Assembly (NCBI GenBank): GCA_004292855.1
Contig: RDXN01000049.1
Coordinates: forward strand, 21,760 to 85,759
Direction: 5' to 3'
Length of the DNA stretch: 64,000 nt
Source of the DNA: Cytophagales bacterium
Lineage (GTDB): Bacteria; Bacteroidota; Bacteroidia; Cytophagales; Spirosomataceae
The notes under the pieces are model-generated. The model saw only the letters and a list, made by a program, of their open reading frames with translations. It was not told where the DNA came from and searched no databases. Positions 23,571 through 54,926 of this stretch are shown here, piece after piece. Both the position numbers and the translations under genes were made by a program. Numbering within the stretch: the stretch's first letter is position 1; every line of letters starts with the position of its first letter.

Positions 23571-23571
23571 G

Positions 23572-24525: not shown

Positions 24526-24528
24526 AGT

Positions 24529-24622: not shown

Positions 24623-24631
24623 ACTCTGTGG

Positions 24632-25750: not shown

Positions 25751-25773
25751 TTGTGTTACAGTATTTCGCTCTT

Positions 25774-27490: not shown

Positions 27491-27505
27491 CATATTGGTA
27501 TTCAT

Positions 27506-32989: not shown

Positions 32990-33236
32990 TGAGAATTGGG
33001 ATTATTGGTTAAGAAAAATACTGGAAAACAAGAAATGCGAGTGCATCGACGTGGGCTGATTGCCCTGTTTTGATGGCTCAAAGGTAGAGTGTTTCGTCAG
33101 ATATGATTCCTAAAATGTGACCATCGGTTACCTAATTGCTCAATTGGTTCTCGGTTAGGACGAAAGGTGAGCAAACCACAAAGGCCATTTGCTAAGTATC
33201 TTTTTGCCCGATAACCAAGCTCTTTACATTTACACT

Positions 33237-34370: not shown

Positions 34371-34396
34371 CAAGATAATAAAGTGGTGCTGACGCT

Positions 34397-35143: not shown

Positions 35144-35368
35144 ATAAAAGAGAATCAATAGCGGTATCAAAACTCCCCAAATAAGCTAAAAACCGCATTA
35201 AATTCCCAGATAGTCCAGAGAAATAAAAACGCACCGCCCCCCTGCAACGAACCACCCCTATGCTGCGTTATGTAATTACCAGTTCACAAATTCATTCGGG
35301 CGTTATTGTATGCAGCATTCTGTACAGACTTTGTTCGTGTTTTTCAACTCAAATTGTCTGTATCGACC

Positions 35369-37749: not shown

Positions 37750-37801
37750 GTAATTAATAAATGATTGGAGTTGCCTGAAATGTGAGTAATCGGACGATTT
37801 T

Positions 37802-37879
37802 GTTTTTGTCATTCCGAGGTACGAGGAATCTCACAATCAGGCAACTGTAAGATTCCTCGTACCTCGGAATGACAAAAAC
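37802..37879. repeat. REP/MITE-like element, short variant copy 7 (GTCATTCCGAGGTACGAGGAATCT)
   Basis: perfect 29-bp arms with matching substitutions. Confidence 0.85.
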
Positions 37880-37895: not shown

Positions 37896-40490
37896 TTAAT
37901 TCGATTTATTGAAAATCACTCGCTTTCCCGACTCTACTGTAACGTCAACAGTATCGGCGGCTTTGACGGTTGGGGTATCGCTTTCCATTTGCAAGTAAGC
38001 GGCTGTGGGTTTGCCACTTACAGACTTCAGGGACAACTTTCCAAACGACCCTGATTGCCCATGTCCCAGATAGATCGAGTGCAGTTTGTTTGCGTCGGTT
38101 AGGGTAATAACGGCGTATCGACCCTTCACACGGATGCCGAGTTTGGAGTCGGCAAATTCGGCTTCGTCCGAGTCCTGCATAATCACGTACTGCGTGAGCA
38201 GCCCATTCGATGTATTGCTCTTGATAGTCACTCCCTTGAACGCATCGCCCTGCCGGATAGCCTCGACCGACTGAATGCTGCCGTTGCTGTTTGCGTCGGT
38301 TGGTTCGTAAACCACGGCAAACGGGTGTGTCCAGGCTTCGCCGGTTTGCCGAATCACGAGCGTCGGCGTGGGGCGATTCGCATACGCTTTGGGGCTGTCG
38401 GTCGTGGGTGGGGCCATCACGCTTGTGTATTCGCGGTTGGCATCGCCGGGGATAAACACGTTCATCTGCACGGGCTGCGGGCGGATGGCGTTGGCCTTGA
38501 AACTGACCCGAACATCGTTTGGATACATCCCCGACGTGTTGACCGATTTGAAAAAATGCCAGCCCGGATGCCGCGCCTTTTTGTTGTTTTGCCACGCTTT
38601 CTGTTCTGAAGCCGCGTATCGTTCCGGGTCGGGGCGGAGTTGAAACGCCGGGGTCGGTGCGGTGACCAGGAGCGTGTCGCCGATGTTGTGATACACGTAG
38701 TCGTGGTACTGCGTTGGCAGGGCCGATTTTGACCGGAACAGGTCCACGTAGTAGGCGGTCGTGGGCGAAGTGCGGATGAGAGCCAATGTGCGTTCCTGAG
38801 TGGCTTCGGCTCCGTCGCCCCGGTCGTCGAGGAAGCGCGAAACCGAAAACGAATGGTTGGCCGACACCCCCGACTGCCGATACCTCGGCTCAATCGCCAC
38901 CGGCTCAACCCGGTTCGTGCCGAGGTTGGCCCAGCCCCCGTTGCTTTCCGATGAGCCGTTGACAATCACCGTATTATGACCTGCAAAAAGCCGGTAATAA
39001 TTCTCGTGAATATCGGTCGTGTAGGCACTGCGTCCCGCTTTCACACCCATCACCATGCCCTTGCCGTAGAGTTCCATGTTCATACCCGATGCGTGACCAT
39101 GCACAAACGAGGCTCCACCCACAAAACCCATCAGATCGTCGGCGGGGTTGTTTGTGGGGCTAAAATTGCGCTGAATCTGAATCCCGGCGAAGGGTAATTC
39201 GTCGGTGATGGGCAGCGGATACGCCTTCGTTTGGCCCTCTATTTCAGGGCTAAACCACAGCAGTTCAACGGGTTCGTTATAAACTTCCGCGCCGTAATTG
39301 CGCTTGCCCACTGCGGGGCGACTATACTGTTTGGTGCTGATTCCGCTGGTTATCAACGCCCCAAATTCGCGTTTCAGGGTCGCCGAATTCTCCAACTGCC
39401 CCAGGTGGTAGGCCATCTCAAACGAATGATAGTCGAGGTGAAATGATCGGTGTCCGTCGCCAAACACCACCATGTCGCGCTTATTCGGGTAGGTCAGGTA
39501 GTAGGTGGTGGTGAGCGCGAAGGGGATCTGCGGGTATTGATTGCCCAAGTGCAATGACGGATCGAAGCGGGTCAGGAGCGTCATCAGGTAGGTGGTCAGA
39601 CCCGCAACCGCACCGGAATAGTTGGTACTTTCGGGCCAGTTGCCGCCGTGTTTCTGGTAAAACTGCCCCACCTTTTGGAGCGCGTCCTGATGGGGGGTGT
39701 TTTTAGTCAGATAATACGGCAGAAAGGAATCCCGTTCGGCAGGGTCGTTGAGAGCCAGCGTGTTACCCACCAAACTCGGCGATTCCAAAATTGGCCAGTT
39801 GCAGTTGATAATGCCCTGTTCCAGAGCCAGATTGATGTAGGTTCGGAAAACGGCTTGCGCGTGATCGTGCGAAAACGGGACTTTTTTCCCCGCCCCCAAA
39901 TCATAAACTGCGCTGTTCTGGGCGATGAACGGATACGCGAAATCATACAGAATCGGGATACCCGCGCCGATCTCGCGAGCCTCGCGCAGGTGGTCGTCGG
40001 GGTAGAGGTAGCCCCCGCCATTATGCCCGCCCGCACTGGGTTTCAGCGGCACAAGCCCTTCGACAAGGGTGTGCAGGATGTCGGCACTGCATTGGCCATA
40101 TTTCGGGTCGTTGGTCAGGTAGTAGAGAATGCCACAGTCGATGCCCGTTTGCAAATAGTGAATCACGATTTTCCGCAATTCGGCATCACTCGTCACGCCC
40201 TTGATCGGCGCGAACGGCGGAATTTTCCCGGCCTCCTGCTTCGCCCAATCGAGGGGCATTTTGCTTAAATAAGCTTTGGCATCGGCCTGATGGCTGCTTA
40301 CATCGTCGGCCACGCGCTTCACAAAAGCGTCGTAGTATGTTTTGGCCCAGGGTGTCGTCCTGATTTTTTGCAGGATAGCTGCCTTGTCCGCCGGTTTCAC
40401 CCAGATCATCGGCCTGACAACCTCCTGAGCCAGCGCGACGGAGTGCCAGAAAAATAGATTGATTACTAAGCAGTTGAGTAATTTTTTCAT
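37896..40490 (-). CDS. heparinase II/III-like polysaccharide lyase family protein (putative)
   Basis: 864 aa, signal peptide, size and architecture fit alpha/alpha-toroid + beta-sandwich lyases; assignment is by resemblance only. Confidence 0.45.
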   Translation of the reverse strand: MKKLLNCLVINLFFWHSVALAQEVVRPMIWVKPADKAAILQKIRTTPWAKTYYDAFVKRVADDVSSHQADAKAYLSKMPLDWAKQEAGKIPPFAPIKGVTSDAELRKIVIHYLQTGIDCGILYYLTNDPKYGQCSADILHTLVEGLVPLKPSAGGHNGGGYLYPDDHLREAREIGAGIPILYDFAYPFIAQNSAVYDLGAGKKVPFSHDHAQAVFRTYINLALEQGIINCNWPILESPSLVGNTLALNDPAERDSFLPYYLTKNTPHQDALQKVGQFYQKHGGNWPESTNYSGAVAGLTTYLMTLLTRFDPSLHLGNQYPQIPFALTTTYYLTYPNKRDMVVFGDGHRSFHLDYHSFEMAYHLGQLENSATLKREFGALITSGISTKQYSRPAVGKRNYGAEVYNEPVELLWFSPEIEGQTKAYPLPITDELPFAGIQIQRNFSPTNNPADDLMGFVGGASFVHGHASGMNMELYGKGMVMGVKAGRSAYTTDIHENYYRLFAGHNTVIVNGSSESNGGWANLGTNRVEPVAIEPRYRQSGVSANHSFSVSRFLDDRGDGAEATQERTLALIRTSPTTAYYVDLFRSKSALPTQYHDYVYHNIGDTLLVTAPTPAFQLRPDPERYAASEQKAWQNNKKARHPGWHFFKSVNTSGMYPNDVRVSFKANAIRPQPVQMNVFIPGDANREYTSVMAPPTTDSPKAYANRPTPTLVIRQTGEAWTHPFAVVYEPTDANSNGSIQSVEAIRQGDAFKGVTIKSNTSNGLLTQYVIMQDSDEAEFADSKLGIRVKGRYAVITLTDANKLHSIYLGHGQSGSFGKLSLKSVSGKPTAAYLQMESDTPTVKAADTVDVTVESGKRVIFNKSN

Positions 40491-40498: not shown

Positions 40499-41623
40499 TC
40501 AGTTCATTTGTACTACCAGCGGACTTGCCAACGCTTCTTTAAACGCCTGAAGATAAGCGAACCACGCGGGCGCATCGGTGATGACCCCGGCTTTGTTCCA
40601 GCAGGCTCCGGTGTAATAGATAAACGGCTCGTTTTGCACCGATGTGGATTGTGCCAGCAGTTGCTCGCCCGTGATTTTCATGGCCGTGACGGGCGTAAGC
40701 AGCACCGAACCCACGCCCGTGATGCCGTCCGGTCCGTGTTGCGGCTCCCAATAGGCCATGATCCCGCGTTGCTCATCGAGCAGCATTTGCCCCAGCTCCG
40801 GGCGTTTGATGATCCCGACCACAACCGGCAGTTTCGATGCCCCACTGTAGCGGTAGGTAGCCTCAACCCGGTTCATCTGCGTACCGGCATCCAGAGTGAT
40901 TTTTTTGGTGGCCGTCACCTTCAGGCCGTTCACATCCCACTCGTCGTATTCGAGCACAAACGTGGTTCGGATGGGGCCGTTGTCCAGCACTTTCCAGCGG
41001 TGGTAGTTTTTGGAATAATAGACCGAATCCTTCACGTAGGGCATCACGTTGCCCGCGCCGAGGGTGTGGCCAACGTGGTAATAATCCATACCGTCGCCAA
41101 TGTCTTCGTGGTATTTGCCGCGTTTGTACCGAGCGTCGAGAACGAGTTTGTCGGTGCGTTTCACCCACACGTCCAGCCCGTAAGCATCGCCTTTGGTGCC
41201 TTCCAAAGCCTTGCCATAAGCGCGAAACGCCACTTTGTCGTTTTCCCACGCAAAATCGTCGAGCCGTTCGGGAACGTACCGGGCAAAGGTTTTGGCTGCA
41301 ACGGGAGCTGGTTTACCTTTCTGAACAGACACCTGAACGCTGCTCTTGGCCGGAACTGATACCTGCATCAACAGGTTCTGCACCGACGCTTCGCCCTGCC
41401 GCTCCAACTGATAAGGAATCTCGGCTTTTGTCCGACTGTCGATCAACCGAAAATTGGCCGAATCGAGGGTTGAGTAGCGGGCTTTCAGAGCCTTCCACGA
41501 AACACCGACAACGGCTTCGTTCCGGGCAACGGTAGCCTCGTTTTGAACGGTAATCGTACCCTGCCCCAATACCGGAAGGGTAAAGCCAGAAAGCAGAAGA
41601 ATGAAATAGTGGTGTTTTTGCAT
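40499..41623 (-). CDS. DUF4861-like secreted protein (PUL accessory, often with GH105)
   Basis: signal peptide; neighbourhood and length; weak recognition. Confidence 0.5.
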   Translation of the reverse strand: MQKHHYFILLLSGFTLPVLGQGTITVQNEATVARNEAVVGVSWKALKARYSTLDSANFRLIDSRTKAEIPYQLERQGEASVQNLLMQVSVPAKSSVQVSVQKGKPAPVAAKTFARYVPERLDDFAWENDKVAFRAYGKALEGTKGDAYGLDVWVKRTDKLVLDARYKRGKYHEDIGDGMDYYHVGHTLGAGNVMPYVKDSVYYSKNYHRWKVLDNGPIRTTFVLEYDEWDVNGLKVTATKKITLDAGTQMNRVEATYRYSGASKLPVVVGIIKRPELGQMLLDEQRGIMAYWEPQHGPDGITGVGSVLLTPVTAMKITGEQLLAQSTSVQNEPFIYYTGACWNKAGVITDAPAWFAYLQAFKEALASPLVVQMN

Positions 41624-41730
41624 TTTCAGGGTAATGTAGTATTGAAAAATCTTGTCGTATGTACTTAGCGTTGGGTGCATTTCACTCTTGTGTTTTGCTC
41701 AACCGTCGCCACTTAAAGCAACCTATATTG

Positions 41731-41846: not shown

Positions 41847-42965
41847 TTAGCGTTTGCCAGTCTCGCTGTCAGGTTTTACGCCGGTTATCTCGCTTACTTT
41901 TTGGAAGAAACCCCGCTTCCGGTCAGAGTTAATACCCCAATCGACTGGGACACTCTGAAAACCTTCTTTGTAGTCGGTCTCGCCCTTAAAACGAAAATCG
42001 AAGTAGCCCCACGACACGTAATTTTTTACGGAAACGGTGAAGTTATTGATCTCCTTGTCGAAGTCGAAATGGTCGTCTTCGTTGTTCATAACGGGCATTT
42101 CCCGATAACCTTCTACCTGCCGGGTGGCATCAATGAGTGTTTGGATCTGTTGGGGTTGTTTGGCTCCGTTCCCGTGAATCAAGATCAAATCTGAGACTTT
42201 CACCACGTTGGATGTCGGCACCTGCCGGCCCCCGTAACTCGTTCCTACCAGAAACCGATAGCCGTTTTTCTTCTTCCCTTTCACCCGCTCAATCAGCTCA
42301 TGAATCCGGTCGGGCCACAGGATTTTGTGGTCGTAGTTGCCGGTCGTGTTGGTTTCGTTGGCAATTTCGATGATGACGTTCCGGTATTTTTTGTCAAACA
42401 GCCAGTTCGTCAGGTTGTCGGTTGCGTTTACAATGGCCCGCTCGTCGGTCAGGTTCTGATCCTGACCAAAGTAAAAAATGCCCAGAATCACGACCATGTT
42501 CAGGTCATCGGCCTTTTTCAGAATCCGATCCAGCCGCTTCATGTACGGCTCCATCAGCGAACCATCGGGGTTGAAGCCCGGATTCAGGCATTTTTTGTTG
42601 CCGTAGCCGTAGGGACTGCCGCCCTGCATATTGAGCGTGAAGGCATTCATGCCGTAGCTCTTCCAGAGTGGCATAGCCGCCACAAACTCGTTGGTGTTGC
42701 GGTCGGCATCCCATTTTTTGGTGTCGGAATAGGCAAACTCGGCTACCGTTTCGGGATTCAGATCATCGAAAATACCCTGAACCAACCGGGCGTTCATGAG
42801 CAACCCTTCGATTTTATTACCCTGCCAGGTTCGGCCCGGATAGGTAGGCTTTCCGTTGATATAGAACTGATTACCCTTGATTTCGACCCGCGTTTTTTGC
42901 GCGAACGAATGATTTTCCAAGACGAGAATCAGGGCGAAAAAGGCTAAAATTCGACGAGTGGTCAT
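41847..42965 (-). CDS. cellulase-like TIM-barrel glycoside hydrolase (putative)
   Basis: signal peptide; IIEIANE acid/base-like motif; family uncertain; start overlaps the sulfatase stop (ATGA). Confidence 0.4.
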   Translation of the reverse strand: MTTRRILAFFALILVLENHSFAQKTRVEIKGNQFYINGKPTYPGRTWQGNKIEGLLMNARLVQGIFDDLNPETVAEFAYSDTKKWDADRNTNEFVAAMPLWKSYGMNAFTLNMQGGSPYGYGNKKCLNPGFNPDGSLMEPYMKRLDRILKKADDLNMVVILGIFYFGQDQNLTDERAIVNATDNLTNWLFDKKYRNVIIEIANETNTTGNYDHKILWPDRIHELIERVKGKKKNGYRFLVGTSYGGRQVPTSNVVKVSDLILIHGNGAKQPQQIQTLIDATRQVEGYREMPVMNNEDDHFDFDKEINNFTVSVKNYVSWGYFDFRFKGETDYKEGFQSVPVDWGINSDRKRGFFQKVSEITGVKPDSETGKR

Positions 42966-44404
42966 GGTTTCGTTTTTCGTTTGTCTTCCCAAAAATCGGC
43001 TCCTCTGTTTTTCCGCATCAGGTCAGATAGCTCCGTGACGACCCCCGCATGTTCGGGTTGTTCGGCCAAATTTTTCAGCTCCAACGGGTCCGTTTTGTGG
43101 TCGAATAACATCCGTGCGGTACGGTTATCTTTATCATCAACCCATTCGGTGTAGAAATACTGGTCCTTAATGACGGTCAGCGCATCGCCCCACCGCGAGA
43201 TGGCAAACGTCTTGGTTCGTTTCCGGTTTTCGATCAACGGAACCACACTCTCGCCCACAGCCGTATTGGGCTTGGGCAACTGGGTTAATTCTGCCAGAGT
43301 TGGGAAAATATCAATAAACTCCACGATGTCTCTGATGCGCTGCCCCGATGTTTTTTGCGGAATTCGGATCAGCAAGGGCGTTGTCAGCGACGACGAAAAA
43401 TTGCAGTGTTTATTCCACAGTTGATGGTCACCGAGGTTCCAGCCGTGATCACCGATCAGTACCACAATTGTGTTTTTGTCTAACTCTAAGCGGGCAAGCT
43501 CGTCCATGATGATGCCTAACTGAGCATCCACATAACTCACACTCGCGTAATAGCCATGTATCAATTTCTTGGCTAAATCTTTAGAAACGAGACCTTTATC
43601 GGGAATGCCGTAATAATTGCGCAGCTCGCCCGAATTATGAAACGCCACTTTTGGAGTACTGGCCGGTTGGCTGTAGTTGGCGGGTAGCCGGATTTTGGTA
43701 CTATCATACAGATCCCAGTATTTTTTGGGCGCATTAAACGGCAAATGAGGCTTGTGAAAACCAACCGTCAGGAAAAACGGCTTCCCGCTTTGCTTGAACT
43801 TTTGTAAATCCTTCTTGATTTTCAGGGCCATTTTGCCATCCCGGTAATCGGTATCGTTGAGGGCTACGTCTTCGTAAGCATAACCCCGATTGTTGTCTTT
43901 TCGGACAGGTTCGTTTTTCACCAGATCCACATTGACCGGATTGATATAGTCTAATTCGCCGTTGCCTTTAGCTTGCCAAATTTCGTCCCAGGCATCTTTC
44001 TCGTCCTGTTTTTGATGGAAAATTTTACCGTTCGAGATGGTTGTGTAGCCGTTTTCGTGAAAAATACGAGGCATCGATTTGGCTCCTGGGTAATGCTCAT
44101 TTAGGAAATCGCCATGATTAATAAAGCGATACCGAGCCGGTCTTGCACCCGACATCAGGCTCGCCCGCGATGCTCCACAAACGGGTATGTTGCAATAGGC
44201 CCGCTCAAAAATGGCACTCCCTGCAGCCAGTTTATCGATATTGGGCGATTTGATGTGCGTGGCCCCAAAACTGCCCAATTCAGGACGCAGATCATCGGCA
44301 ACAATGAACAGGACGTTCATTTTGCCCTGCTCAACGGGTTGTTTTTTAAACCCGACCAGTAAACCGAGTATCAAAACAAGGGAAAGGGGTACGGCTATTT
44401 TCAT
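42962..44404 (-). CDS. sulfatase (formylglycine-dependent, S1 family)
   Basis: CGASRASLMSG Cys-x-A-x-R FGly motif, VADDLRPELG N-terminal metal site. Confidence 0.85.
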   Translation of the reverse strand: MKIAVPLSLVLILGLLVGFKKQPVEQGKMNVLFIVADDLRPELGSFGATHIKSPNIDKLAAGSAIFERAYCNIPVCGASRASLMSGARPARYRFINHGDFLNEHYPGAKSMPRIFHENGYTTISNGKIFHQKQDEKDAWDEIWQAKGNGELDYINPVNVDLVKNEPVRKDNNRGYAYEDVALNDTDYRDGKMALKIKKDLQKFKQSGKPFFLTVGFHKPHLPFNAPKKYWDLYDSTKIRLPANYSQPASTPKVAFHNSGELRNYYGIPDKGLVSKDLAKKLIHGYYASVSYVDAQLGIIMDELARLELDKNTIVVLIGDHGWNLGDHQLWNKHCNFSSSLTTPLLIRIPQKTSGQRIRDIVEFIDIFPTLAELTQLPKPNTAVGESVVPLIENRKRTKTFAISRWGDALTVIKDQYFYTEWVDDKDNRTARMLFDHKTDPLELKNLAEQPEHAGVVTELSDLMRKNRGADFWEDKRKTKP

Positions 44405-44571: not shown

Positions 44572-47500
44572 CTAATACGTATTGATAATCAGCTCAATCC
44601 GGTTCATTCCGGGCGACAGACGGATGGTATTGAACATCGTGTTGACTTTGTTGCCGTTGAGCAGAACGGTGTCCTCCGACGAGTACGTCAGGCTCAGTTC
44701 TGCCGAGACATTGGCGGGCAACTCGATCTGATACGCCTGATCGGTTTTGCTTTTGCGCTGGTACGTGGCCCGGACCGTTCCCTTCATGGTGGGTACGTCT
44801 ATCTGGCTTTTAGTCAGCTTGCCCATCTGTGGCCGGATGGACAGAATGGCCCCGCCCGGCGTTTGGGGCTGGATTCCCCAGAGATTCCGGGCGACAATGT
44901 TGGCGGGGGCCGCGCCCCAGGCGTGGTTCCAGTCGAGGTTGGGTTTATATTTGGTGTCCCAGGCTTCCCAGGTCATTGTGGAGCCGGACCGAATCATGTT
45001 GTACCAGCTTCGGTCGTGGGTGGCCGTCATCAGCGACAGAGCATAGTCGGGTTCGTTGGCTTTGTAGAGGGCTTCCAATAGATATTGAGCACCGTAAACA
45101 CTACAGGCCATACCGCGTGTTTTGATGAAAGCGGCCACCGATTTTTTGCGCGATTCGGGCACCACATCAAACGCCAGAGCCATCATGTTGGCGTGCAACG
45201 ACGAGTGGTTCGTGCCTTCGCCATCCACATACGCCCCCGTTTTGGAGTCGAACAGTTTTTCATTGATTGCTTCCCTGACCTTCAGGGCCATCGTGCGGAA
45301 TCGCTGTTCATCGTCGGGCTTGTTCAGTATCCGGGCAAACTCGCTCATGATGACCATGTTCTGGTAAAAGAAACTGTTTACTACCGTGTTGATGGGCGTA
45401 AACACGTATCCGTCGCGTTCCCCCTCGGCGGTGGCTAATTTCCAGCCGGTGTCTTTCTGAGCGGGGGGCCAATCAACAATATCTTTAAGTTTCACAGCGG
45501 GGTCGGTGAACCCCAGCTTCTGCATGAACGCGGGCGTGTTTTTGGGTGAGCCAGAGCTAATCAATCCGTCTTCGCGGGCCAGTTCAAGCAGCGTTTTGTG
45601 AATCAGTGGTTCATAATAGCGGCTGATTAGCCCCGTGTTGCCCGTATACATGTAGTCCTGGTGAAGCATCAGGACTACATGTAGCTGCCACTCGGTGGGC
45701 CAGGTGGGGTGGGCCATAAAATACTCAATGGTCCGGCGGGCAATACCATATTCGCGGTCGGTGGTGTAATGACTCAGTTGATTCAGATAAGCATCAGCCT
45801 CGTAGGGAATCCGCTCCCGGTCGCCGTCCAGATACAATCCCGAAAACGAACTGCCTTTCATCGTGTATTTGCACAAAGCCCACACCTGATTCAAAATAGT
45901 ATCGGAACTGGAAAAGCGACTCTGATTTTCGTCGAAATAGCTGAAATAAGCCACCTGCTTTACGGCATCGGCGGTTAGTGAACTGTTGGCCGCCCCGTCA
46001 ATCTCGGCATACCGGAAAGGCAACAGCACCGGAAACGAGTCGGGCAGGACTACCGCACCGGGTTTGGTGTTTCTCTCGTCGGGTTTGATGGCCAGCCGGT
46101 AGGTACGTTGCCCGGGCTGAACAGCCAGCTTCACTTCCTGATAGCGAATGTGTCCGTCTGGTTTGCGGTTGATTTGCTCACCCGCCAGTTGTTCACCCAA
46201 CCGAATCCGCAGCGTGTCGTTGTTTCGTGCGCTGTTGTAGGTCAGTTCGAGCGTAGCGAAGGCGGCTTTGCCAAAGTCCGCGAAATACGTACCGTCCGCT
46301 TTTTTCCGAAAGGCCGTTGGAACAATACGTTCTATCTGGAAACCACTCGGCGAACTCAGGTACGTGCCCGGTTTTCCTACCCGAAACGGTTGCCCCGCCG
46401 AATAGTCGCTCGTTCGGTTGTCAGCATCCCAGACTCTGACTTTCCAGTAATAGGGCGCACCAATTTTCAGCGTCGCCCCTCGATAAGGAACCTCCGTCGA
46501 TTGGCCGCTACGTACTTGTCGGCTATCCCACACATCGCCCACGTTATTGTCGAGCATGGCTTTCGACGAAGCCACCAAAAGCTGATACGCCGACTGGAAA
46601 ACGGCTTCTTTCGGAACAATCCACGAAAAGTTGGGGCTGCTGTCGGCCAGCAACACCCGGTCCGGTTTCCGCACCAAATCGACCATTAAGCCGGTCGGCA
46701 CGCCCGAATACGGGTCTTGGTAGCGAGTAATGAGTTGATCGGTTTTCTGCCGAAGTTTGGTCAGCACAACCCGGTGGGTTTCGTCTTTGGCGAGGTTGGT
46801 GGCTTCGGTTGGGTCGTTTTTTACGTGGTAGAGTTCCTCCAGCGATTTGTCGTTCACGTACCGAAAATACTTCCAGTCGTTTGTTCGCACGCCTTCGCTC
46901 GGCGGAATAGACTCAAACGCCCAAAGATGCTCAATCAATACGGTGTCGCGGCTACTGCGATTACCCCCGCCCGATACCATTGTTCGCAGGCTTTTACCCT
47001 GATAAAGAGCCGGTTGCTTCACGCCTGCTAGGTCGAGAATGGTCGAGGGAACGTCGATGTTTCGGGCGATGGCTTCCACGTCCTGATGTTGGTTGGCTCG
47101 TGGGTCATATACTATGAGCGGCACCCGGATTGAGGCATCATACATGAGCCATTTGTCGGCCAACTGCCGTTCGCCGAGGAAATAGCCATTATCGCCCATC
47201 ACGATGATGACGGTGTTTTTGTCAAGGCCACGTTGTTTGAGTTGCGCCCGAATTCGGGTCACTTCGAGGTCAACGCCAGCAATCATGCGGTAGTAGCCCT
47301 TCACCATGCGTTGGTATTTTTCGGGCGTATCGAACCGCCACTTCCACCGCACCCGGCTGAATCCGGCTTTTACAGCTTCGGGTTGTTGGTTAAAGTCAGC
47401 ATTGGTACTTAGGGGTGGGGGCGGAATTGTCTCGTTTTCAAGCCAGTTTGCCGTTTGCTCATCCCAGAAATACTGGTCCGGGGCAGAGTCGTGGGCGTGG

Positions 47501-48084
47501 GGTGCCGAGAAACTGAGCGACAGGCAGAACGGCTGTTTTGTAGGAGCATTCTGAATAAAATCAATCGCTTTCTGACCCGTGTAGCGGGTCAGGTGAACGG
47601 TGTCTTTGCCAATCGTTTTGTAAAAATAGCCGCGCCGGTCGGGAAATCTGGTGTTCCGGTCATAGTCCTCCATCACGTCGAACAGCGCGTCGGTCTGGTT
47701 ATATTTCACGCCCAGTTTTCCGTAGAAACCCGTGTAATAACCCGCTTCTTTCAGGAGTTTGGGGTAGGCCATTTGCATGTACTCCGACCGGATCGTACCC
47801 GCCTGAAACGTGTACTTGTGTGTTCGCTCGTGCATCCCGCTCAGGATGGTGGCCCGGCTCGCGGTGCAGATGGGCGTGGTAACAACGGCGTTTTTGAAGT
47901 ACGTCCCTGTCCGGGCCAGTTTGTCCAGTTCGGGCGTGTGCGCGAACCGATTTCCCACATACCCCAACGCATCCGCCCGATGATCGTCGGTCAGGATAAA
48001 AATGATATTCGGTCGGGACGCTGATTGCCCGTTTGCAATCAGGGTGGACAAACAGACCAGGAGCAGCGTAATCCCAATTTTCAT
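44572..48084 (-). CDS. bimodular S1 sulfatase - GH78 alpha-L-rhamnosidase fusion (1170 aa)
   Basis: N-terminal ILTDDHRADALG / CTASRATILSGMH sulfatase motifs; C-terminal Bac_rhamnosid N-domain-like region and six-hairpin GH78 region (LMLHQDYMYTGN, NHAWGAAP). Confidence 0.75.
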   Translation of the reverse strand: MKIGITLLLVCLSTLIANGQSASRPNIIFILTDDHRADALGYVGNRFAHTPELDKLARTGTYFKNAVVTTPICTASRATILSGMHERTHKYTFQAGTIRSEYMQMAYPKLLKEAGYYTGFYGKLGVKYNQTDALFDVMEDYDRNTRFPDRRGYFYKTIGKDTVHLTRYTGQKAIDFIQNAPTKQPFCLSLSFSAPHAHDSAPDQYFWDEQTANWLENETIPPPPLSTNADFNQQPEAVKAGFSRVRWKWRFDTPEKYQRMVKGYYRMIAGVDLEVTRIRAQLKQRGLDKNTVIIVMGDNGYFLGERQLADKWLMYDASIRVPLIVYDPRANQHQDVEAIARNIDVPSTILDLAGVKQPALYQGKSLRTMVSGGGNRSSRDTVLIEHLWAFESIPPSEGVRTNDWKYFRYVNDKSLEELYHVKNDPTEATNLAKDETHRVVLTKLRQKTDQLITRYQDPYSGVPTGLMVDLVRKPDRVLLADSSPNFSWIVPKEAVFQSAYQLLVASSKAMLDNNVGDVWDSRQVRSGQSTEVPYRGATLKIGAPYYWKVRVWDADNRTSDYSAGQPFRVGKPGTYLSSPSGFQIERIVPTAFRKKADGTYFADFGKAAFATLELTYNSARNNDTLRIRLGEQLAGEQINRKPDGHIRYQEVKLAVQPGQRTYRLAIKPDERNTKPGAVVLPDSFPVLLPFRYAEIDGAANSSLTADAVKQVAYFSYFDENQSRFSSSDTILNQVWALCKYTMKGSSFSGLYLDGDRERIPYEADAYLNQLSHYTTDREYGIARRTIEYFMAHPTWPTEWQLHVVLMLHQDYMYTGNTGLISRYYEPLIHKTLLELAREDGLISSGSPKNTPAFMQKLGFTDPAVKLKDIVDWPPAQKDTGWKLATAEGERDGYVFTPINTVVNSFFYQNMVIMSEFARILNKPDDEQRFRTMALKVREAINEKLFDSKTGAYVDGEGTNHSSLHANMMALAFDVVPESRKKSVAAFIKTRGMACSVYGAQYLLEALYKANEPDYALSLMTATHDRSWYNMIRSGSTMTWEAWDTKYKPNLDWNHAWGAAPANIVARNLWGIQPQTPGGAILSIRPQMGKLTKSQIDVPTMKGTVRATYQRKSKTDQAYQIELPANVSAELSLTYSSEDTVLLNGNKVNTMFNTIRLSPGMNRIELIINTY

Positions 48085-48093: not shown

Positions 48094-48750
48094 TCAAAAA
48101 GCGACGTTGCGCGTGTAATCATTCAGGACGTGGGCGATTCCGTTGGCATACCGCAGATTGTGCGTGCGGACGGTGGTGCCGCGCCGGGTAGCGGTGAGCG
48201 GGAAAACCGTTGCCGGATTCACCGAAACCGTGTATCGCTCATCGCGCCGGAGCAGGATTTTTCCGTTGTCGCCCTCGTTGAGCGTCTGGAAAAAATAATC
48301 GCTCCCATACGCTTTCAAGGGGTCAATCTGCGTGATATACTCCTTGTCGATGATGTGGTATTTCAGCAGGTTTGCCAGCCGGACTTTATCGGCGGCCCGA
48401 ACCGGCCCCGTGACCTTGCCCGTCAGCGTTTGCAGAATCTTGTTGGCATCATCGAAGGCGTTGTTGTTCAGCAACAGAAATGTTCGCCGGTCGCTCTTCC
48501 GGTTGAACTCCTCCACCAAACCCGTGTACTCGATGGCATCAATCAGGAAGTCAAATTTATATTGATCGACCGCCGTGAGGCTGCTCGGCGATTTCTGGGT
48601 TTGGAGCCATTCCCAAACGGTCTGGTTCTCGTAGGTGGCGATGTCGTTGGTTTCAGGAACAAATTCAAATGGTTTCTGCACCTCCAGATCGCAACCGATC
48701 AGGGGCAGAAACAACACAAGGATGAAGAAATATTTCAGATGAGAAAACAT
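48094..48750 (-). CDS. fasciclin (FAS1) domain lipoprotein
   Basis: lipobox LPLIGC; FAS1 motifs (TFLLLNNNAFD, NGIAHVLNDY). Confidence 0.7.
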   Translation of the reverse strand: MFSHLKYFFILVLFLPLIGCDLEVQKPFEFVPETNDIATYENQTVWEWLQTQKSPSSLTAVDQYKFDFLIDAIEYTGLVEEFNRKSDRRTFLLLNNNAFDDANKILQTLTGKVTGPVRAADKVRLANLLKYHIIDKEYITQIDPLKAYGSDYFFQTLNEGDNGKILLRRDERYTVSVNPATVFPLTATRRGTTVRTHNLRYANGIAHVLNDYTRNVAF

Positions 48751-48877: not shown

Positions 48878-50338
48878 TTAATACCCCTCCGTTTGCGTCA
48901 GTAAGGGATTGTCGAACAAGTGCCGGTCGAAAATGGGGAACAGCAGCCTTTGTTCGGTTTGCTTGTTTATTGGGCCCATTACCGTTACGGCCTTACCTGT
49001 CCGGCGCAGATCCCACCAACGGACTCCTTCGGCCAGGAACTCCATTTGCCGTTCGTCGAGAATAAAGTTTTCGAGTTGCTCTTTGGTCGTGAAATCAGCC
49101 GCCCGAACGGTGGGCAATTGCCGGGCCGTGCGGAGTTGGTTCATCAGCGTAACGGCGGCATCCTTGTTGCCGAGTTGGTTTTCGGCTTCGGCTAACAGGG
49201 TTAGCGTGTTGGCATACCGATACACAATGATGTCGGTATCGTCGAAGGTGGGGCTAATGTTGGTCTTGGTATATTTGGCCACCCGCGCCAACCCAAAATC
49301 GCGCGCGGCCTCGCGGCTTTCAATGTACCGCCAATCGCCAAAGAGCGTTTTTCCGGCTGCGTCTTTAGATTTGGGCGAAAAGGTAGGATACAGCGTGGTC
49401 CAGGCGACTGAGTCTGTCGGGAATTTGGCAACCCATTTCCGTTCCAGAACTGGATTGATGTAATACGTGGGTAGCCCGGCAAAGAACACCGCATAAATAC
49501 CACTCCGGTCGCTGTCTTCGGTCAGGCTATAACGGATGTTGAAAATAAATTCGGGGCTGGTCTGAAACTTGCCACCCTGTCCCGGATCATTCAGAAACTG
49601 CTTTAACCAGGCATCGCGCGTTGTTACCAGCGAGAAGGTATTAAGCTTGGTAATATTCGTGAGAGCAACTTTGGCTTTGGCAAAATCTTTTAGAAACAGA
49701 TAGACCTCGGCCTGCAACGACCAAATGCCCGCTTTCGAGAACCTGTACGTGTTGGTGTTCTGAGTCAGCAACGATTCGGCCTTGAGCATATCCGGGATAA
49801 TCAACTGATTCATGATCTCGGCGGCCTTCGATTTCGGTTTTTTGATCTCCTGATCCAGGCCCGTTACGGGTTCGGTGTAGAGCGGCACGTCGCCCCAAAC
49901 CCGAACTGCGTGGAAATAAGCGTAGGCGCGTATGGCATGGGCCTCACCCAGAAGCTGCCGGTCATAATTTGGGATTTTGGGAATATTCGCGATGGCGATG
50001 TTCGCCCGGGCAATCATCAGATAGAACGTATTCCAGCGCAGTGCCCCGGCATTCGTGGACGTGAGGGCGTTATTGAGCAATTCCAGACCCTCTGCCGTGG
50101 GCGTAGCCGACCGCACAAAGTTGTCGGCCCGGAACTCGCCCCAACTGTAGTACTTCGTATTGTAGGTTTTCTGCATGGCATCGTAAATGGCCGTCACGCC
50201 CGACGTGGCATCGGCATTGCTGCGCCAAAACTGCTCTTCCGACAGTTGGCTGTAGGGTTTTTGTTCGAGAATACCCTCGCACGAACTGACCAATAAACTG
50301 GCAACCGACAAAATGAGAAATGTATAGAATGTATTCAT
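48878..50338 (-). CDS. SusD/RagB family nutrient-binding outer-membrane lipoprotein
   Basis: lipobox SLLVSSC; SusD-like TPR scaffold; follows susC. Confidence 0.9.
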   Translation of the reverse strand: MNTFYTFLILSVASLLVSSCEGILEQKPYSQLSEEQFWRSNADATSGVTAIYDAMQKTYNTKYYSWGEFRADNFVRSATPTAEGLELLNNALTSTNAGALRWNTFYLMIARANIAIANIPKIPNYDRQLLGEAHAIRAYAYFHAVRVWGDVPLYTEPVTGLDQEIKKPKSKAAEIMNQLIIPDMLKAESLLTQNTNTYRFSKAGIWSLQAEVYLFLKDFAKAKVALTNITKLNTFSLVTTRDAWLKQFLNDPGQGGKFQTSPEFIFNIRYSLTEDSDRSGIYAVFFAGLPTYYINPVLERKWVAKFPTDSVAWTTLYPTFSPKSKDAAGKTLFGDWRYIESREAARDFGLARVAKYTKTNISPTFDDTDIIVYRYANTLTLLAEAENQLGNKDAAVTLMNQLRTARQLPTVRAADFTTKEQLENFILDERQMEFLAEGVRWWDLRRTGKAVTVMGPINKQTEQRLLFPIFDRHLFDNPLLTQTEGY

Positions 50339-50354: not shown

Positions 50355-53300
50355 TTAAAACCCTGCTTTGATCCCGATAATAAAATCCCGCTTGTTCGGA
50401 TACCTCAGGTCGTCCTGACCCGGTTGCAGCACATTGCCGCGCGTGCCGAGTTCGGGGTTGTAGCCGGGGTAGTTGGTGAACGTGATCAGGTTGTTGACCG
50501 AAAAATTGACTGACGCATTTTTCAGCCAGGGCGTTTTTTTCAGCATCGTTGCCGGTAGGCGATACGAAAACCGAACGTTGCGGAACTTGATATACTCGCC
50601 CGGACTGATGTACTGGGAGTTTGGCCCCAGCCGGTTTTGAGTGCGATTGCGGTCGAGGCTCGCATATTCGGACACGTCGCCTGCTTTCACCCACGCCCGG
50701 TCGATCCGTTCGGGGGCGGGGGTTTCGTTGGCTGAGTTCAGGTCGTTGCGCTGCTGATCGTAGTTACGGAAGATCTGGTTGCCAAACGTGTAATCGAACA
50801 AAAACGACAGCGAGGCCGCTCCATATTTGAACTCGTTGAAAAACCCGCCGAAGTACTTCGGCAATCCATTCCCGATTACTTGCCGGTCGAAGCCGTCAAT
50901 CGAAAAATTATTGTCGAGGTCCTGCCAGAAAATATCGCCCCCACGTAGCACCGTTGCGCCAATTCGCTGGCGATTAACGGTTCCCGTATAGTCGGCCCCG
51001 TTTTGCTGGTATTTAACGAAGGCTCCGTTCTCAAAAACAGGAGTCAACTGCGTGCCGCTTGCATCGAAAGCGTTGTGCTGATCGGTTGGGAAAATGCCGA
51101 GATTCCGATACCCGTAGAAATTACCAATCGATTCACCCTGCTGAATAAAGAAATTCCCCGCCGTAAAGCCATCTTCGTCAGCCAGTTCGAGCACTTTGTT
51201 TTTCTGGAACGTGATGTTGAAATTGCTAAACCACTCGAACGGACCCTTACGATAAGGCGTCCCGCTCAGGTTAATATCGACTCCACGGTTGCTCACCGCC
51301 CCAATGTTTTGCCGCGATACGGAGAACCCCGTTTCTTCGGGAATCGGTACGTTGTAGAGCAGGTTCCGGGTAGTTTTTTGCCAGAAATCAACCTCCACGT
51401 TCAACCGCGACTTAAACAAGGTGGCGTTCAGGCCGTAGTTGACCGATGCTGTACTTTCCCAGCCTAAGTTGGGATTAGCCAACTGAAAACTGGCTACGCC
51501 GTTGATGCCGTTGTAATAGAAACCCGGACGATACAGCAGCAGCGATTCGTAGTTGCCCACGCGCTCGTTGCCGGTGGCCCCGAAACTCGCTTTCAGCAGC
51601 AGATTGTTGACCTGCGGAATACCCTTGAAGAATTTTTCATTGCTGAGTCGCCAACCTACCGAACCCGACGGGAAAAGGCCATACCGTCGGTTGGCCCCAA
51701 ACCGCGACGAACCATCGCGCCGGAGCGTCGCTTTAACCAAATATTTGCCACCGTAATCATACGAAACATCTCCGAAAAGGCCCGTCAGGGCGTGCCGGAA
51801 CTTGTCGGTGCGGGTGTTGCCGAGGTTAAACTCAGCGACGTTATTAAAGGTGCGGATATTGTCGGAAACAAACGAAATGGCCACCAGATCAGACGATTCC
51901 TCTTCCCATAGTTGGCTCGAATAGCCCGCCAAAGCTCCCAGCGAGTGCTTGTTGAACCGCTTTTTGAACCGGAAATAATTTTCCTGGAGCAGGTCATAAC
52001 TCAGCCCGTAGCCTTCGCTGCCCGTTGCGGGCCGGCCAATGGTCTGCACAATAATCGGGTCGAAATTATTTTGCTTGTTTAGCCTGAAATTGACCCCCAG
52101 CGTGGTTTTGAACGTAAGCCAGGGGGCCAGTTCCAGTTCGAGAAAGCTAAACGATTGGGCGCGATAATTCCGGTTGTCGCGGGTGGTGAACAGGGCTTCG
52201 GCCACCGGATTCTGCCGACCCGCAATCTCCGGGGTGTAGCTTCCGTCGGGTTCAAAAATGGGGAAGTAGGCAATCCGCTCGGCAATTTGCTGAAACACCG
52301 CGCCTTCATTCAAACCCTTTGTTAGCTCATACGACAGGTTGAGGGCCGTGCCGCCATTCATCCGCTTATTGATTTCGAGGTCTAATTTCAACTTCGACGT
52401 TATGCGGCTGTACGAACTGTTGAGCACAATTCCGTTCTCGTTGAGGTAGCCAGTGTTCCAGTAAAACCGGGTCCGGTTGGTGCCGCTACTCAACGATACG
52501 TTCACCTGATCGCGAACACCCGTGCGGGTAACCAGGCTGTTCAGGTCGTTGGAAATCTGGTATAACAAGCTGGTTGAGTCGGCAGATTGATTTTCCGGGG
52601 CCAAACCCGCCCGCACGTTCTCGTAATAAAACCGCTGCCGGGTGTTGGCAATCGGAATCGCGCTTGCCACCTGACTATACACCCGCCCGTAGTCAACGTC
52701 GAGCCGAAAATCGTTGGTCTTCCCCGATTTGGTGGTGATGATAATCACACCGTTGGCCGACTTCGACCCGTAGATAGCCGCCGAAGCCCCATCTTTCAGC
52801 ACTTCTATCGAGGCAATGTCGTTTGGGTTCAGGTTGTCGATGTCTTCCAACTGCTGCCCATCCACTACATACAATGGATTCACGCCCGCCGAAAACGTCG
52901 ACGTACCTCGAATGCGAATATCCGACCCCGATCCCGGCCCGCCGTTCGACGAAATCTGCACCCCGGCAATCCGTCCCTGCACCGCATCGAACGCGTTAAT
53001 AGGCGTTGTCTGCTCAATATCCTTTTCTTTAATGGAGCTAATCGAACCCAGAATATCCTTACGGCTCGTGGTCGAATAGCCCGTTACCACCACTTCGTCA
53101 AGTGACTGACTGTCAGGCAACAGAGCCACGTTGATGGTGGAGTTGTTGGCGACCAGAACTTCTTTTTTGGTAAACCCCACAAACGAAAAAACCAGGATTG
53201 CCTTGTTGTTCGGCACCGAGATCTGGTAGTTGCCGCTGGGGTCGGTCACGGTTCCGTTGAACGTACCTTTCAGCAACACCGACACGCCCACCAACGCGGC

Positions 53301-53747
53301 CCCTTCCGAGTCGGTCACGGTTCCTTTTATCAGTTTCGCCACGACCGCCTGCCCCTCCGTTGGGGGCATATTCGTCATGCCCACGTCTTTTTTGAACAGG
53401 AGAATCTGCCTGTTTCCTGCCGGTTCATACGTGATTTTCAGGGGTTTGAAAATCTGATCGAGCACCTGCCGTAGCTGTTCGTTGGTGGCCTTGAAATTAA
53501 TTTTCTGGCCTACTTTCAACTCTTTCGGGTTGAAAACGAAACGCACACGCGATGCCTTTTCGAGCTTGCTGAGGGTAGATCGCAAGTCTTCGTTGACGAG
53601 TTCGACGCTAACGGTTTGGTCGAGAAGCTCCTGCCCCGCCGAGTCGTGCGCGAAGGCAAAACCGGCGAACAGGGCGACAAGTACTAGCTGAATGAAGGTG
53701 AGCTTTGCCAGGTGATCGATGTACCGGACGAGTAATTGTTTATCCAT
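50355..53747 (-). CDS. SusC/RagA TonB-dependent outer-membrane transporter with N-terminal STN signalling domain
   Basis: 1130 aa; STN domain, carboxypeptidase-regulatory-like domain, plug and beta-barrel; C-terminal F. Confidence 0.9.
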   Translation of the reverse strand: MDKQLLVRYIDHLAKLTFIQLVLVALFAGFAFAHDSAGQELLDQTVSVELVNEDLRSTLSKLEKASRVRFVFNPKELKVGQKINFKATNEQLRQVLDQIFKPLKITYEPAGNRQILLFKKDVGMTNMPPTEGQAVVAKLIKGTVTDSEGAALVGVSVLLKGTFNGTVTDPSGNYQISVPNNKAILVFSFVGFTKKEVLVANNSTINVALLPDSQSLDEVVVTGYSTTSRKDILGSISSIKEKDIEQTTPINAFDAVQGRIAGVQISSNGGPGSGSDIRIRGTSTFSAGVNPLYVVDGQQLEDIDNLNPNDIASIEVLKDGASAAIYGSKSANGVIIITTKSGKTNDFRLDVDYGRVYSQVASAIPIANTRQRFYYENVRAGLAPENQSADSTSLLYQISNDLNSLVTRTGVRDQVNVSLSSGTNRTRFYWNTGYLNENGIVLNSSYSRITSKLKLDLEINKRMNGGTALNLSYELTKGLNEGAVFQQIAERIAYFPIFEPDGSYTPEIAGRQNPVAEALFTTRDNRNYRAQSFSFLELELAPWLTFKTTLGVNFRLNKQNNFDPIIVQTIGRPATGSEGYGLSYDLLQENYFRFKKRFNKHSLGALAGYSSQLWEEESSDLVAISFVSDNIRTFNNVAEFNLGNTRTDKFRHALTGLFGDVSYDYGGKYLVKATLRRDGSSRFGANRRYGLFPSGSVGWRLSNEKFFKGIPQVNNLLLKASFGATGNERVGNYESLLLYRPGFYYNGINGVASFQLANPNLGWESTASVNYGLNATLFKSRLNVEVDFWQKTTRNLLYNVPIPEETGFSVSRQNIGAVSNRGVDINLSGTPYRKGPFEWFSNFNITFQKNKVLELADEDGFTAGNFFIQQGESIGNFYGYRNLGIFPTDQHNAFDASGTQLTPVFENGAFVKYQQNGADYTGTVNRQRIGATVLRGGDIFWQDLDNNFSIDGFDRQVIGNGLPKYFGGFFNEFKYGAASLSFLFDYTFGNQIFRNYDQQRNDLNSANETPAPERIDRAWVKAGDVSEYASLDRNRTQNRLGPNSQYISPGEYIKFRNVRFSYRLPATMLKKTPWLKNASVNFSVNNLITFTNYPGYNPELGTRGNVLQPGQDDLRYPNKRDFIIGIKAGF

Positions 53748-53840: not shown

Positions 53841-54926
53841 TTAATTACACCCTTCGCTTCGAATAAAAATCTGTGCATCAACCACTTCGTAGGTCGAGTG
53901 CGTGATTCGGCAGATCAGATCGAGTTTTTCAAATAACGATTCTTCGGTCAGGTTGGCCGTCAGGTAGCAATTCTCAATCGTGCGCTCGTCGTAAGTAAAC
54001 GAAATACCGTAGGCACTGCTCAAGTTTTGCAGCACCGTTTTGAGGGGCGTTTCGTCAAACACAAATTGCTCGTTGGCAGGCGTAGCCACAAGTTCCGGCT
54101 GTTGTACAATAGATTTCACCAATCGCTCCTCTTTGGGCGCAACCGTAGCCTGCTGATTGGTTGTTAGCACCACGCCCGTCAGCCGACTGTTGCCGCGTTC
54201 GCTGACAGCCCGTAAATCTTTGTACAAATAGACCGACACCTTGCCCGACCGTACCTGTACGCTCGCATCGGCATTTTTCGCGAACGAATTTACCATAAAA
54301 CTCGTCCCCAGCACCTGCGTAGATAGTTTGTCGCTATGCACCCAGAACGGTTTTTTGGGATTTCGGCTAATCTCGAAAAAGGCTTTTCCGTTCAGAAAAA
54401 CCACTCGTTTCGTCGGTTCAAACGGGTTTGGGTATTTAATGCTACTGTTAGGGTAAAGCGTAATCACGCTGTTCTCCGATAGTAAAATCCGAACGGGTTT
54501 GTCGGTATCGTTGGTGTTTTCGATGTATTTGCCAGTGGTCGGTTGGCCGTTGGCGACAGTCGATTGGGTCGGTTTCAGAATAAGTTGCCGGTATAAAAAG
54601 CCCCCAATACCTAACACCAACAGGATTGAGGCCGCGATTCGCATGGCCGGACTGCGCCAGAAAAAGATCACTTTGGGGCGATTCTCAGCCACCGTGTCGG
54701 CCACAAAATCATCTATCTCTTCGTCGGAAATAGTAACGGGGGTCTCCTGCAAATTCAGTAAAATGGCTTTGGCAACGTGTACCTTCCGGGCATTTTCGGG
54801 CTTGACGGCCATCCAGTTCGTCCAGGATGCCTCTCCTTCCGAATCGTTGTTCAGCACCCATTCCCGAAACGGCTCCTGCCGAAGCAAGTCCTGAATCGTA
54901 TACTCCGTGTGTTCGTTCGGTATCAT
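53841..54926 (-). CDS. FecR-family anti-sigma factor
   Basis: single TM, FecR + DUF4974-type C-domain. Confidence 0.85.
   Translation of the reverse strand: MIPNEHTEYTIQDLLRQEPFREWVLNNDSEGEASWTNWMAVKPENARKVHVAKAILLNLQETPVTISDEEIDDFVADTVAENRPKVIFFWRSPAMRIAASILLVLGIGGFLYRQLILKPTQSTVANGQPTTGKYIENTNDTDKPVRILLSENSVITLYPNSSIKYPNPFEPTKRVVFLNGKAFFEISRNPKKPFWVHSDKLSTQVLGTSFMVNSFAKNADASVQVRSGKVSVYLYKDLRAVSERGNSRLTGVVLTTNQQATVAPKEERLVKSIVQQPELVATPANEQFVFDETPLKTVLQNLSSAYGISFTYDERTIENCYLTANLTEESLFEKLDLICRITHSTYEVVDAQIFIRSEGCN

Follow-up and report, generated by a model that had tools for sequence, protein, structure and literature searches.

A predicted two-step sulfatase–rhamnosidase fusion of the P36 type in a Cytophagales polysaccharide utilization locus

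We analyzed 64,000 nucleotides of DNA from a Cytophagales bacterium (assembly GCA_004292855.1, contig RDXN01000049.1, positions 21,760 to 85,759 of the forward strand), hereafter referred to as the window, and focused on a minus-strand gene at 44572..48084 that encodes a putative S1_25 sulfatase fused to a predicted GH78 alpha-L-rhamnosidase. Our results indicate that this protein is probably an exo-acting enzyme of the periplasm that works in two steps and is of the same type as P36 of Formosa agariphila, in which desulfation of L-rhamnose would precede its release. The sulfatase half closely resembles the sulfatase module of P36, the candidate catalytic residues in each module are conserved, and the gene lies in a polysaccharide utilization locus (PUL) that carries the core of the published route for ulvan.

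Architecture and distribution of the fusion

The features of the fusion are as follows.

44572..48084, minus strand: S1_25 sulfatase + GH78 alpha-L-rhamnosidase bimodular fusion (assigned by homology), single open reading frame with an ATG start, 1170 aa, no internal stop
48022..48084, minus strand: predicted N-terminal signal peptide, aa 1-~21, MKIGITLLLVCLSTLIANGQS, read from the sequence, with a helix at 2-17 in the AlphaFold2 model
46708..48021, minus strand: S1 sulfatase module, aa 22-459, Pfam Sulfatase and SGSH_C, 6HR5 match
47854..47868, minus strand: formylglycine motif C73-T-A-S-R77, CTASRATILSGMH, with C73 and R77 invariant in 60 homologues
46375..46656, minus strand: Rha78A-like N-terminal Ig domain, aa 477-570, PF25788 (Ig_Rha78A_N), E 6e-22, aligning with the N-domains of 6I60 and 3W5M
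45958..46305, minus strand: concanavalin-like Bac_rhamnosid beta-sandwich, aa 594-709, Pfam match weak and under the cut-off (E 0.007), modelled as all-beta with strands at 582-715
44884..45924, minus strand: GH78 (alpha/alpha)6 catalytic domain, aa 721-1067, PF17389 (Bac_rhamnosid6H), E 1.4e-47, profile positions 3-338 of 339, helical at 729-1068 in the model
45793..45828, minus strand: acidic cluster D753-G-D-R-E757-R-I-P-Y-E-A-D764 with the candidate general acid E757, from alignments and invariance
44959..44973, minus strand: T-W-E1040-A-W with the candidate general base E1040, from alignment and invariance
44668..44877, minus strand: GH78 C-terminal beta-sandwich, aa 1070-1139, PF17390 (Bac_rhamnosid_C), E 1e-7, strands at 1071-1166 in the model

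An initial annotation of this DNA had proposed a single 1170-aa polypeptide with formylglycine sulfatase motifs at its N-terminus and a rhamnosidase N-domain and six-hairpin region in its C-terminal part. All of this was borne out: the reading frame is uninterrupted and lies on the minus strand, which the annotation did not give; the S1 module is intact, with its motif starting at C73; and Pfam finds both Ig_Rha78A_N and Bac_rhamnosid6H. The proposed origin in a high-GC Cytophagales-like genome held only for the lineage, as the NCBI entry for the protein (TAE29034.1, on a 99-kb contig) is labelled 'MAG: DUF4976 domain-containing protein [Cytophagales bacterium]' (MAG, metagenome-assembled genome), while "high-GC" overstates a window G+C content of 54.4%. 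The arylsulfatase and rhamnosidase equivalogs of NCBIfam match the fusion below threshold only, leaving it without an equivalog name, whereas the Pfam matches of both modules exceed the curated cut-offs, apart from the weak Bac_rhamnosid sandwich. Inspection of the N-terminus revealed no canonical lipobox in the signal peptide, which suggests a soluble periplasmic enzyme.

Within the N-terminal module, Pfam places Sulfatase at aa 25-355 (E 1e-47) and SGSH_C at aa 304-451 (E 2e-28). By far the closest sulfatase in the Protein Data Bank (PDB) is 6HR5 (E 7e-195), the S1_25 sulfatase module of rhamnosidase FA22250 (P36) from F. agariphila; the runners-up, 5G2V among them, reach E 2e-46 or weaker. 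The sulfatase half shares 63% identity with 6HR5 across 438 aa by BLASTP. Its formylglycine motif carries Ala in place of the usual Pro, and the aligned motif of 6HR5 is C-A-A-S-R, so that C-x-A-S-R is common to both. Using nearness to 6HR5 as a proxy for a SulfAtlas assignment, we place the module in S1_25. Residues D33, D34, K123, H196, H198, D298, N299 and K311 are the same in 6HR5 and, like C73 and R77, are invariant across our conservation alignment (60 homologues, 61-93% identity); the roles of individual sulfatase residues were assigned by homology only.

The C-terminal part, aa ~464-1166, is predicted to be a complete GH78 alpha-L-rhamnosidase; Pfam, conserved catalytic acidic residues and the predicted fold agree in placing it inside GH78, as the initial annotation had it. 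In phmmer alignments to solved rhamnosidases, D753 is aligned to D567 of RhaB, the stretch DG-DRERIPYEAD is aligned to the BT1001 motif DGIKRDRWVWSGD, and E1040 is aligned to both E895 of SaRha78A (3W5M) and E841 of RhaB (2OKX). The acidic residues of RhaB are D567, E572 and D579, and on the basis of motif spacing and that numbering E757 is a candidate general acid that may be equivalent to E572 of RhaB and E636 of SaRha78A. In SaRha78A, E895 is the GH78 catalytic base and E636 the acid (PMC7263609). D753, E757, D764 and E1040 are all invariant in the 60 homologues.

The full-length AlphaFold2 model of the fusion (predicted local distance difference test score (pLDDT) 80.8, predicted template modelling score (pTM) 0.80) consists, in order, of an alpha/beta sulfatase ending in a long helix at 435-454, a short linker, two beta-sandwiches, a helical barrel at 729-1068 and a last beta-sandwich. 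A Foldseek search of the PDB with this model returned 6HR5 at the top (target TM 0.84), followed by the GH78 structures 6I60, 3CIH, 3W5N and 6GSZ; the GH78 rhamnosidases 8HMM and 8IWF also appeared, and the matches listed were all sulfatases or rhamnosidases.

The fusion proved to be widespread. In a collection of 5.8 billion proteins, more than 120 clusters contain the full-length fusion with both domain sets (1155-1202 aa, query coverage 98-100%, 60-93% identity); they include Spirosoma spitsbergense, Emticicia, Lacihabitans, Algoriphagus, Cyclobacterium, Catalinimonas, Mariniphaga and Saprospiraceae, with isolate genomes among them. A scan of species-representative genomes recovered full-length fusions in Cytophagales, Bacteroidales, Marinilabiliales-type genomes and Flavobacteriaceae. 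The fusion of a marine flavobacterial Wenyingzhuangia (locus L008) is 57% identical to the query over aa 7-1170.

Unfused forms were observed as well. Searching with the 6HR5 sequence identified many proteins of ~575-590 aa that comprise only S1_25 and Ig_Rha78A_N, mostly from marine Flavobacteriia such as Arenibacter and Zobellia. These short forms belong to the same subfamily, are 65-83% identical to 6HR5 and carry the Ig domain directly after the sulfatase; unlike the fusion they lack the GH78 catalytic domain, which leaves them desulfation only. The same search did not return full-length F. agariphila P36, only the tagged PDB construct and the many short forms. In Arenibacter (locus L038, 8001-9740) no GH78 gene follows the short form, and in Emticicia MAGs (loci L010-L012; short form at L010 5390-7096) it stands beside a separate, distant GH78. 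Since the short forms keep the Ig domain, this domain travels with the sulfatase, and fused and unfused states are both natural; either the Ig domain is functionally tied to the sulfatase, or the short forms are truncation products of the fusion. In a draft genome of Jejuia pallidilutea two pieces of 592 and 556 aa stand in place of one gene, on a contig with many further split genes, and this split is probably a sequencing-error artefact.

The ~580-aa S1_25 and Ig proteins without a GH78 catalytic domain, which genuinely exist, and the 592/556-aa split in Jejuia would be in keeping with a fusion that arose by faulty assembly or a frameshift, or in which one module has decayed into a non-catalytic binding domain. 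We consider this extremely improbable: the full-length fusion recurs in the many clusters described above, isolate genomes included, an identical protein is present on the SRR7244341 run assembly of the source in a separate database, G+C is even over the junction (53.8% and 54.7% in the two halves), and no candidate catalytic residue of either module varies among the 60 aligned homologues, with no loss-of-function substitution found in either active site. On these grounds the frameshift or chimera explanation, which the initial annotation had named as a point to check, was rejected.

The S1_25/GH78 pairing has a characterized precedent. P36 (FA22250) of F. agariphila KMM 3901, encoded in ulvan PUL H (Reisky et al. 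2019; PMC8511951), has the same pair of modules as the fusion. On Rha3S-X-Rha3S trisaccharides (Rha3S, rhamnose-3-sulfate), its sulfatase takes the sulfate off the rhamnose at the non-reducing end, and the GH78 domain then removes that rhamnose (PMC8511951). The sulfatase of P36 appears to be N-terminal, judging from the His-tagged 6HR5 construct, which starts as a mature N-terminus would and spans the equivalent of aa 22-459. By analogy, the same consecutive reactions are presumed for the fusion. The hosts differ, P36 coming from a marine flavobacterium and the fusion from a Cytophagales MAG. As the P36-type architecture and mechanism are already published, the fusion is a further member and not a new architecture.

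Two other groups share one half of the fusion. Stand-alone GH78 enzymes (BT1001, 3CIH; DtRha, 6I60; SaRha78A, 3W5M/3W5N; RhaB, 2OKX) have the Ig domain, beta-sandwich, (alpha/alpha)6 domain and C-terminal beta-sandwich as in the fusion, and a catalytic Glu pair to which E1040 and the candidate acid E757 would correspond, but they share only 12-16% identity with it in structural alignments and none has a sulfatase module. The fucose-3-sulfatase SWF4 belongs to the same SulfAtlas subfamily, S1_25, and acts on the 3-O-sulfate of a 6-deoxy-L-hexose; unlike the fusion, it is a single module that acts on fucoidan oligosaccharides.

The surrounding polysaccharide utilization locus

The fusion lies within a cluster of genes that are all on the minus strand and closely spaced, neighbouring genes being -31 to 230 nt apart. 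We drew the operon limits from this spacing; scans of the PUL for sigma-70 promoters and intrinsic terminators gave counts not above those of shuffled sequence. In the direction of transcription, the genes around the fusion are as follows.

55734..56978, minus strand: PF05426 'alginate lyase'-family protein, whose stop overlaps the start of the ECF sigma gene by 8 nt
55157..55741, minus strand: extracytoplasmic function (ECF) sigma factor
53841..54926, minus strand: FecR-type anti-sigma factor
50355..53747, minus strand: SusC-like TonB-dependent transporter with an STN domain (trans-envelope signalling type)
48878..50338, minus strand: SusD-like lipoprotein, N-terminus ...LLVSSC
48094..48750, minus strand: lipoprotein with a fasciclin domain and, after its lipobox LIGC, acidic residues; gene 9 nt upstream of the fusion gene
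42962..44404, minus strand: second S1 sulfatase, S1_7-like, best PDB match 6HHM (E 8e-84, 38% identity)
41847..42992, minus strand: uncharacterised GH5-like protein, true start probably M9 at nt 42968
40499..41680, minus strand: DUF4861 / BT3233-family polysaccharide utilization protein, NCBIfam above cut-off
37896..40490, minus strand: PL40 ulvan lyase homologue, 864 aa, matching 9VTK (Uly1040) over near full length (E 2.8e-205)
36625..37812, minus strand: GH88 unsaturated glucuronyl hydrolase, closing the cluster

By homology, the cluster holds the core of the published ulvan route, namely a lyase, an unsaturated uronyl hydrolase, a Rha3S sulfatase, a rhamnosidase and an S1_7 sulfatase. The PL40 homologue is publicly labelled 'hypothetical protein EAZ91_13510', and correcting this label together with the 'DUF4976 domain-containing protein' of the fusion would remedy poor public annotation of the locus. 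Its residues N231, W232, E287, Y291, D345, H464, H466 and Y490 match N245, W246, E301, Y305, D358, H485, H487 and Y511 of Uly1040, a PL40 ulvan lyase in which these eight residues are catalytic or substrate-binding (PMC12915356). The structure 6HHM, closest to the second sulfatase, is the ulvan xylose-2-sulfatase P18_S1_7, and the next match of that protein is human iduronate-2-sulfatase.

Some of these assignments could also suit a glycosaminoglycan PUL of the heparin or chondroitin type, in which the GH78 module would be incidental or serve another glycan. GH88 is typical of glycosaminoglycan PULs, the match of the S1_7-like sulfatase to human iduronate-2-sulfatase fits such a substrate, and our local Pfam scan labelled the lyase only with a weak Hepar_II_III_C domain. 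This explanation is nonetheless very unlikely: the precomputed Pfam annotation of an identical database protein gives Ulvan_lyase_2nd and Ulvan_lyaseC, in line with the strong Uly1040 match, glycosaminoglycans are rhamnose-free, and the synteny of the fusion with SusC, SusD and fasciclin genes is conserved.

The PUL of P36 and the PUL described here both contain a PL40 lyase, an unsaturated uronyl hydrolase and an S1_7 sulfatase. PUL H additionally has PL28, GH105, GH3, GH39, GH43, GH2 and a PL37-type protein (P29) (PMC8511951), which are absent from the window and its much smaller PUL. The latter, unlike PUL H, carries fasciclin lipoprotein, BT3233-family, GH5-like and PF05426 lyase-like proteins.

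These further proteins gave limited clues to function. The fasciclin gene always lies between SusD and the fusion in syntenic loci (L035, L036, L040 and L041), and its product is possibly a surface glycan-binding protein, a type not usually listed for PULs. The GH5-like protein had no PDB sequence match as a single-sequence query; a profile of its homologues matched only the GH5 cellulase 1TVN in the PDB (E 4e-4). Its AlphaFold2 model, at pLDDT 92, takes the form of a (beta/alpha)8 barrel with only distant clan GH-A matches (GH5 mannanases and GH140, TM ~0.5, 9-15% identity), so a function cannot be assigned from it. With 1862 representative homologues, often within larger multidomain proteins, and counterparts at 15193-16293 of L040 and, fused to BNR_4, at 19354-20451 of L041, it appears to represent an uncharacterised clan GH-A-like family and is a candidate for a missing pathway step. 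No PDB sequence match was found for the DUF4861 protein. The structures closest to the PF05426 protein, which also occurs in L040 and L041, are 3NFV and 8BDQ, 'alginate lyase family' proteins of Bacteroides ovatus that are probably PL38 enzymes; the protein may cut glucuronan-like stretches of the substrate.

The PUL context is conserved in part. The relative L036 (93%) has the fasciclin gene, the fusion and the S1_7-like sulfatase. L040 (76%) carries sigma factor, FecR, SusC, SusD, fasciclin, fusion, GH106, GH5-like, GH88, DUF4861, PL40 and PF05426 genes, and L041 (73%) carries SusC/D, KduI, PF05426, SusC, SusD, fasciclin, fusion, GH106, sulfatase, GH5-like/BNR_4 and PL40 genes. In the Bacteroidales loci L002 and L006 (Tangfeifania), a fusion adjoins a PL40 gene that is 46% identical. 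The predicted desulfate-then-cleave enzyme of the P36 type, together with a PL40 lyase, is widespread beyond marine Flavobacteriia.

Proposed pathway and substrate

The reading frame, domains, catalytic-residue conservation, predicted folds, and PUL make-up and recurrence were observed in this analysis, and the two reactions and their order come from the literature on the homologue P36; that the enzyme is periplasmic, how the steps follow one another in this host and what the substrate is are inferred. In the proposed pathway, the PL40 lyase would cut the polymer beside uronic acids, and SusC/SusD would import the resulting oligosaccharides. GH88 would then take off the unsaturated uronate, exposing L-rhamnose-3-sulfate at the non-reducing end. 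The S1_25 module, using formylglycine derived from C73 and a divalent-metal site, would hydrolyse the 3-O-sulfate, after which the inverting GH78 module, with E757 as acid and E1040 as base, would free the unsulfated alpha-L-rhamnose. The remaining residues would be processed by the S1_7-like sulfatase and other PUL enzymes. The target would be an ulvan-type sulfated glucurono/xylo-rhamnan.

The analysis supports the interpretation of the initial annotation, which had proposed desulfation followed by cleavage, citing marine flavobacterial enzymes, and use of an ulvan-like or other rhamnan sulfate. The order of the two steps has been demonstrated biochemically for P36 (PMC8511951), and the ulvan-like reading is strengthened by the PL40 homologue, GH88 and S1_7-like sulfatase, neighbours that the annotation did not include.

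Several observations weigh against the assignment as a P36-type enzyme for ulvan. The likeness to P36 was measured on the sulfatase half only. In the model of the fusion, the active-site loops (aa 70-78, 300-313, 757-765 and 1039-1055) are precisely where pLDDT drops under 50, and with loop confidence this low the model is uninformative on active-site geometry or on channelling between the sites. S1_25 also holds the fucose-3-sulfatase SWF4 (PMC9096561), so membership of the subfamily leaves the sugar unfixed. The fusion is found without an adjoining PL40 gene in Spirosoma spitsbergense (L033), where only another sulfatase follows, and in a Cytophagales MAG (L034, 79%), the closest match in the genome collection, where two SusC/D pairs follow. 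Among the genes of the 64-kb window we found no sulfatase maturase of the formylglycine-generating enzyme (FGE) or anaerobic sulfatase-maturating enzyme (anSME) type, no GH3 or PL37-type dehydratase for the GlcA-Rha3S remainder (GlcA, glucuronic acid), and no genes for catabolism of rhamnose or 2-keto-3-deoxygluconate (KDG); these functions are encoded elsewhere, or the pathway differs. Lastly, the genera of the relatives are non-marine, and classical ulvan is not an obvious substrate there.

As an observation in its own right, the low-pLDDT catalytic loops of both modules coincide with alignment columns that are invariant.

The non-marine genera of the relatives bear on which polysaccharide is degraded. 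The same two-step chemistry could serve a non-marine glycan of sulfated rhamnose or another 6-deoxyhexose with uronate, such as a cyanobacterial or freshwater green-algal exopolysaccharide, in place of algal ulvan. The host is known from a Cytophagales MAG, Spirosoma, Emticicia and Lacihabitans carry the closest homologues of the fusion that bear a name, and homologues of the PL40 lyase occur in Lacibacter, Pedobacter and Flavobacterium fluviatile; these named homologues come from soil and freshwater genera. Freshwater cyanobacteria make a sulfated rhamnose-containing exopolysaccharide, synechan (PMC8205485), the fucose-3-sulfatase within S1_25 (PMC9096561) would allow a different deoxyhexose, and the relatives L040 and L041 add a GH106 rhamnosidase that is not among the ulvan-PUL enzymes of PMC8511951. 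Against this stand the 63% identity of the sulfatase to an ulvan enzyme, the complete agreement of the PL40 homologue with a proven ulvan lyase at the catalytic and substrate-binding residues, and the joint presence of PL40, GH88, S1_7 and S1_25/GH78, which together make up the ulvan enzyme set. On balance, we regard a substrate other than algal ulvan as unlikely, if conceivable, and an ulvan-type polymer as the better candidate. In view of the non-marine genera, the cyanobacterial sulfated exopolysaccharide and the fucose-3-sulfatase in S1_25, "ulvan-type sulfated glucuronorhamnan" is a safer description than "ulvan".

More tentatively, the locus may exemplify a compact PUL type, conserved in Cytophagales and related non-marine Bacteroidota, that degrades a sulfated glucuronorhamnan other than marine ulvan. 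In the relatives, the order of this PUL type is sigma/anti-sigma, SusC, SusD, fasciclin, S1_25/GH78, (GH106), GH5-like, GH88, BT3233-family, PL40 and PF05426. Our literature search on freshwater ulvan or PL40 PULs returned marine studies only, and a recent PL40 paper treats marine distribution only (PMC12915356). Were this PUL type to act on a non-marine glucuronorhamnan, ulvan-type catabolism, now described as marine, would have an equivalent in fresh water or soil that uses accessory proteins of its own. If the host is non-marine, the locus would offer a compact model for the turnover of sulfated rhamnose polysaccharides in fresh water or soil and a source of a minimal ulvan-saccharifying enzyme set. 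The wider interest lies in the possible non-marine substrate and in the conserved uncharacterised partners, namely the fasciclin lipoprotein, the BT3233-family protein and the GH5-like protein.

Other genes in the window

Genes at 57-64 kb, downstream of the PUL, encode an HpcH-family aldolase, an amidohydrolase, an acyl-CoA synthetase and an enoyl-CoA hydratase. They were weighed as a rhamnose catabolic set and not accepted; the aldolase falls below every NCBIfam cut-off.

A sugar-catabolic cluster occupies 14600-28918 on the minus strand and includes an FGGY kinase, an ABC permease and ATPase, DUF2291, a periplasmic sugar-binding protein and an esterase. It also contains tandem Sde182 nucleoside-hydrolase-like paralogues (20586-21992 and 21998-23449), the C-terminal (23572-24525) and N-terminal (25774-26598) halves of a transketolase, separated by an IU_nuc_hydro-like gene, and an L-fucose-isomerase-like protein (27506-28918). 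The arrangement is reminiscent of transketolase-dependent rare-pentose pathways of the apiose type. The FGGY-family sugar kinase is split at 14626-16252 (minus strand) into overlapping reading frames, FGGY_C at 14626-15306 and FGGY_N at 15251-16252, which is a frameshift, a pseudogene or an assembly error.

Just upstream of the PUL region, 29233-30930 (minus strand) and 33189-35170 encode two GT2 glycosyltransferases, a DegT/DnrJ-type aminotransferase and another GT2, apparently a small cell-surface glycan biosynthesis group unrelated to the PUL.

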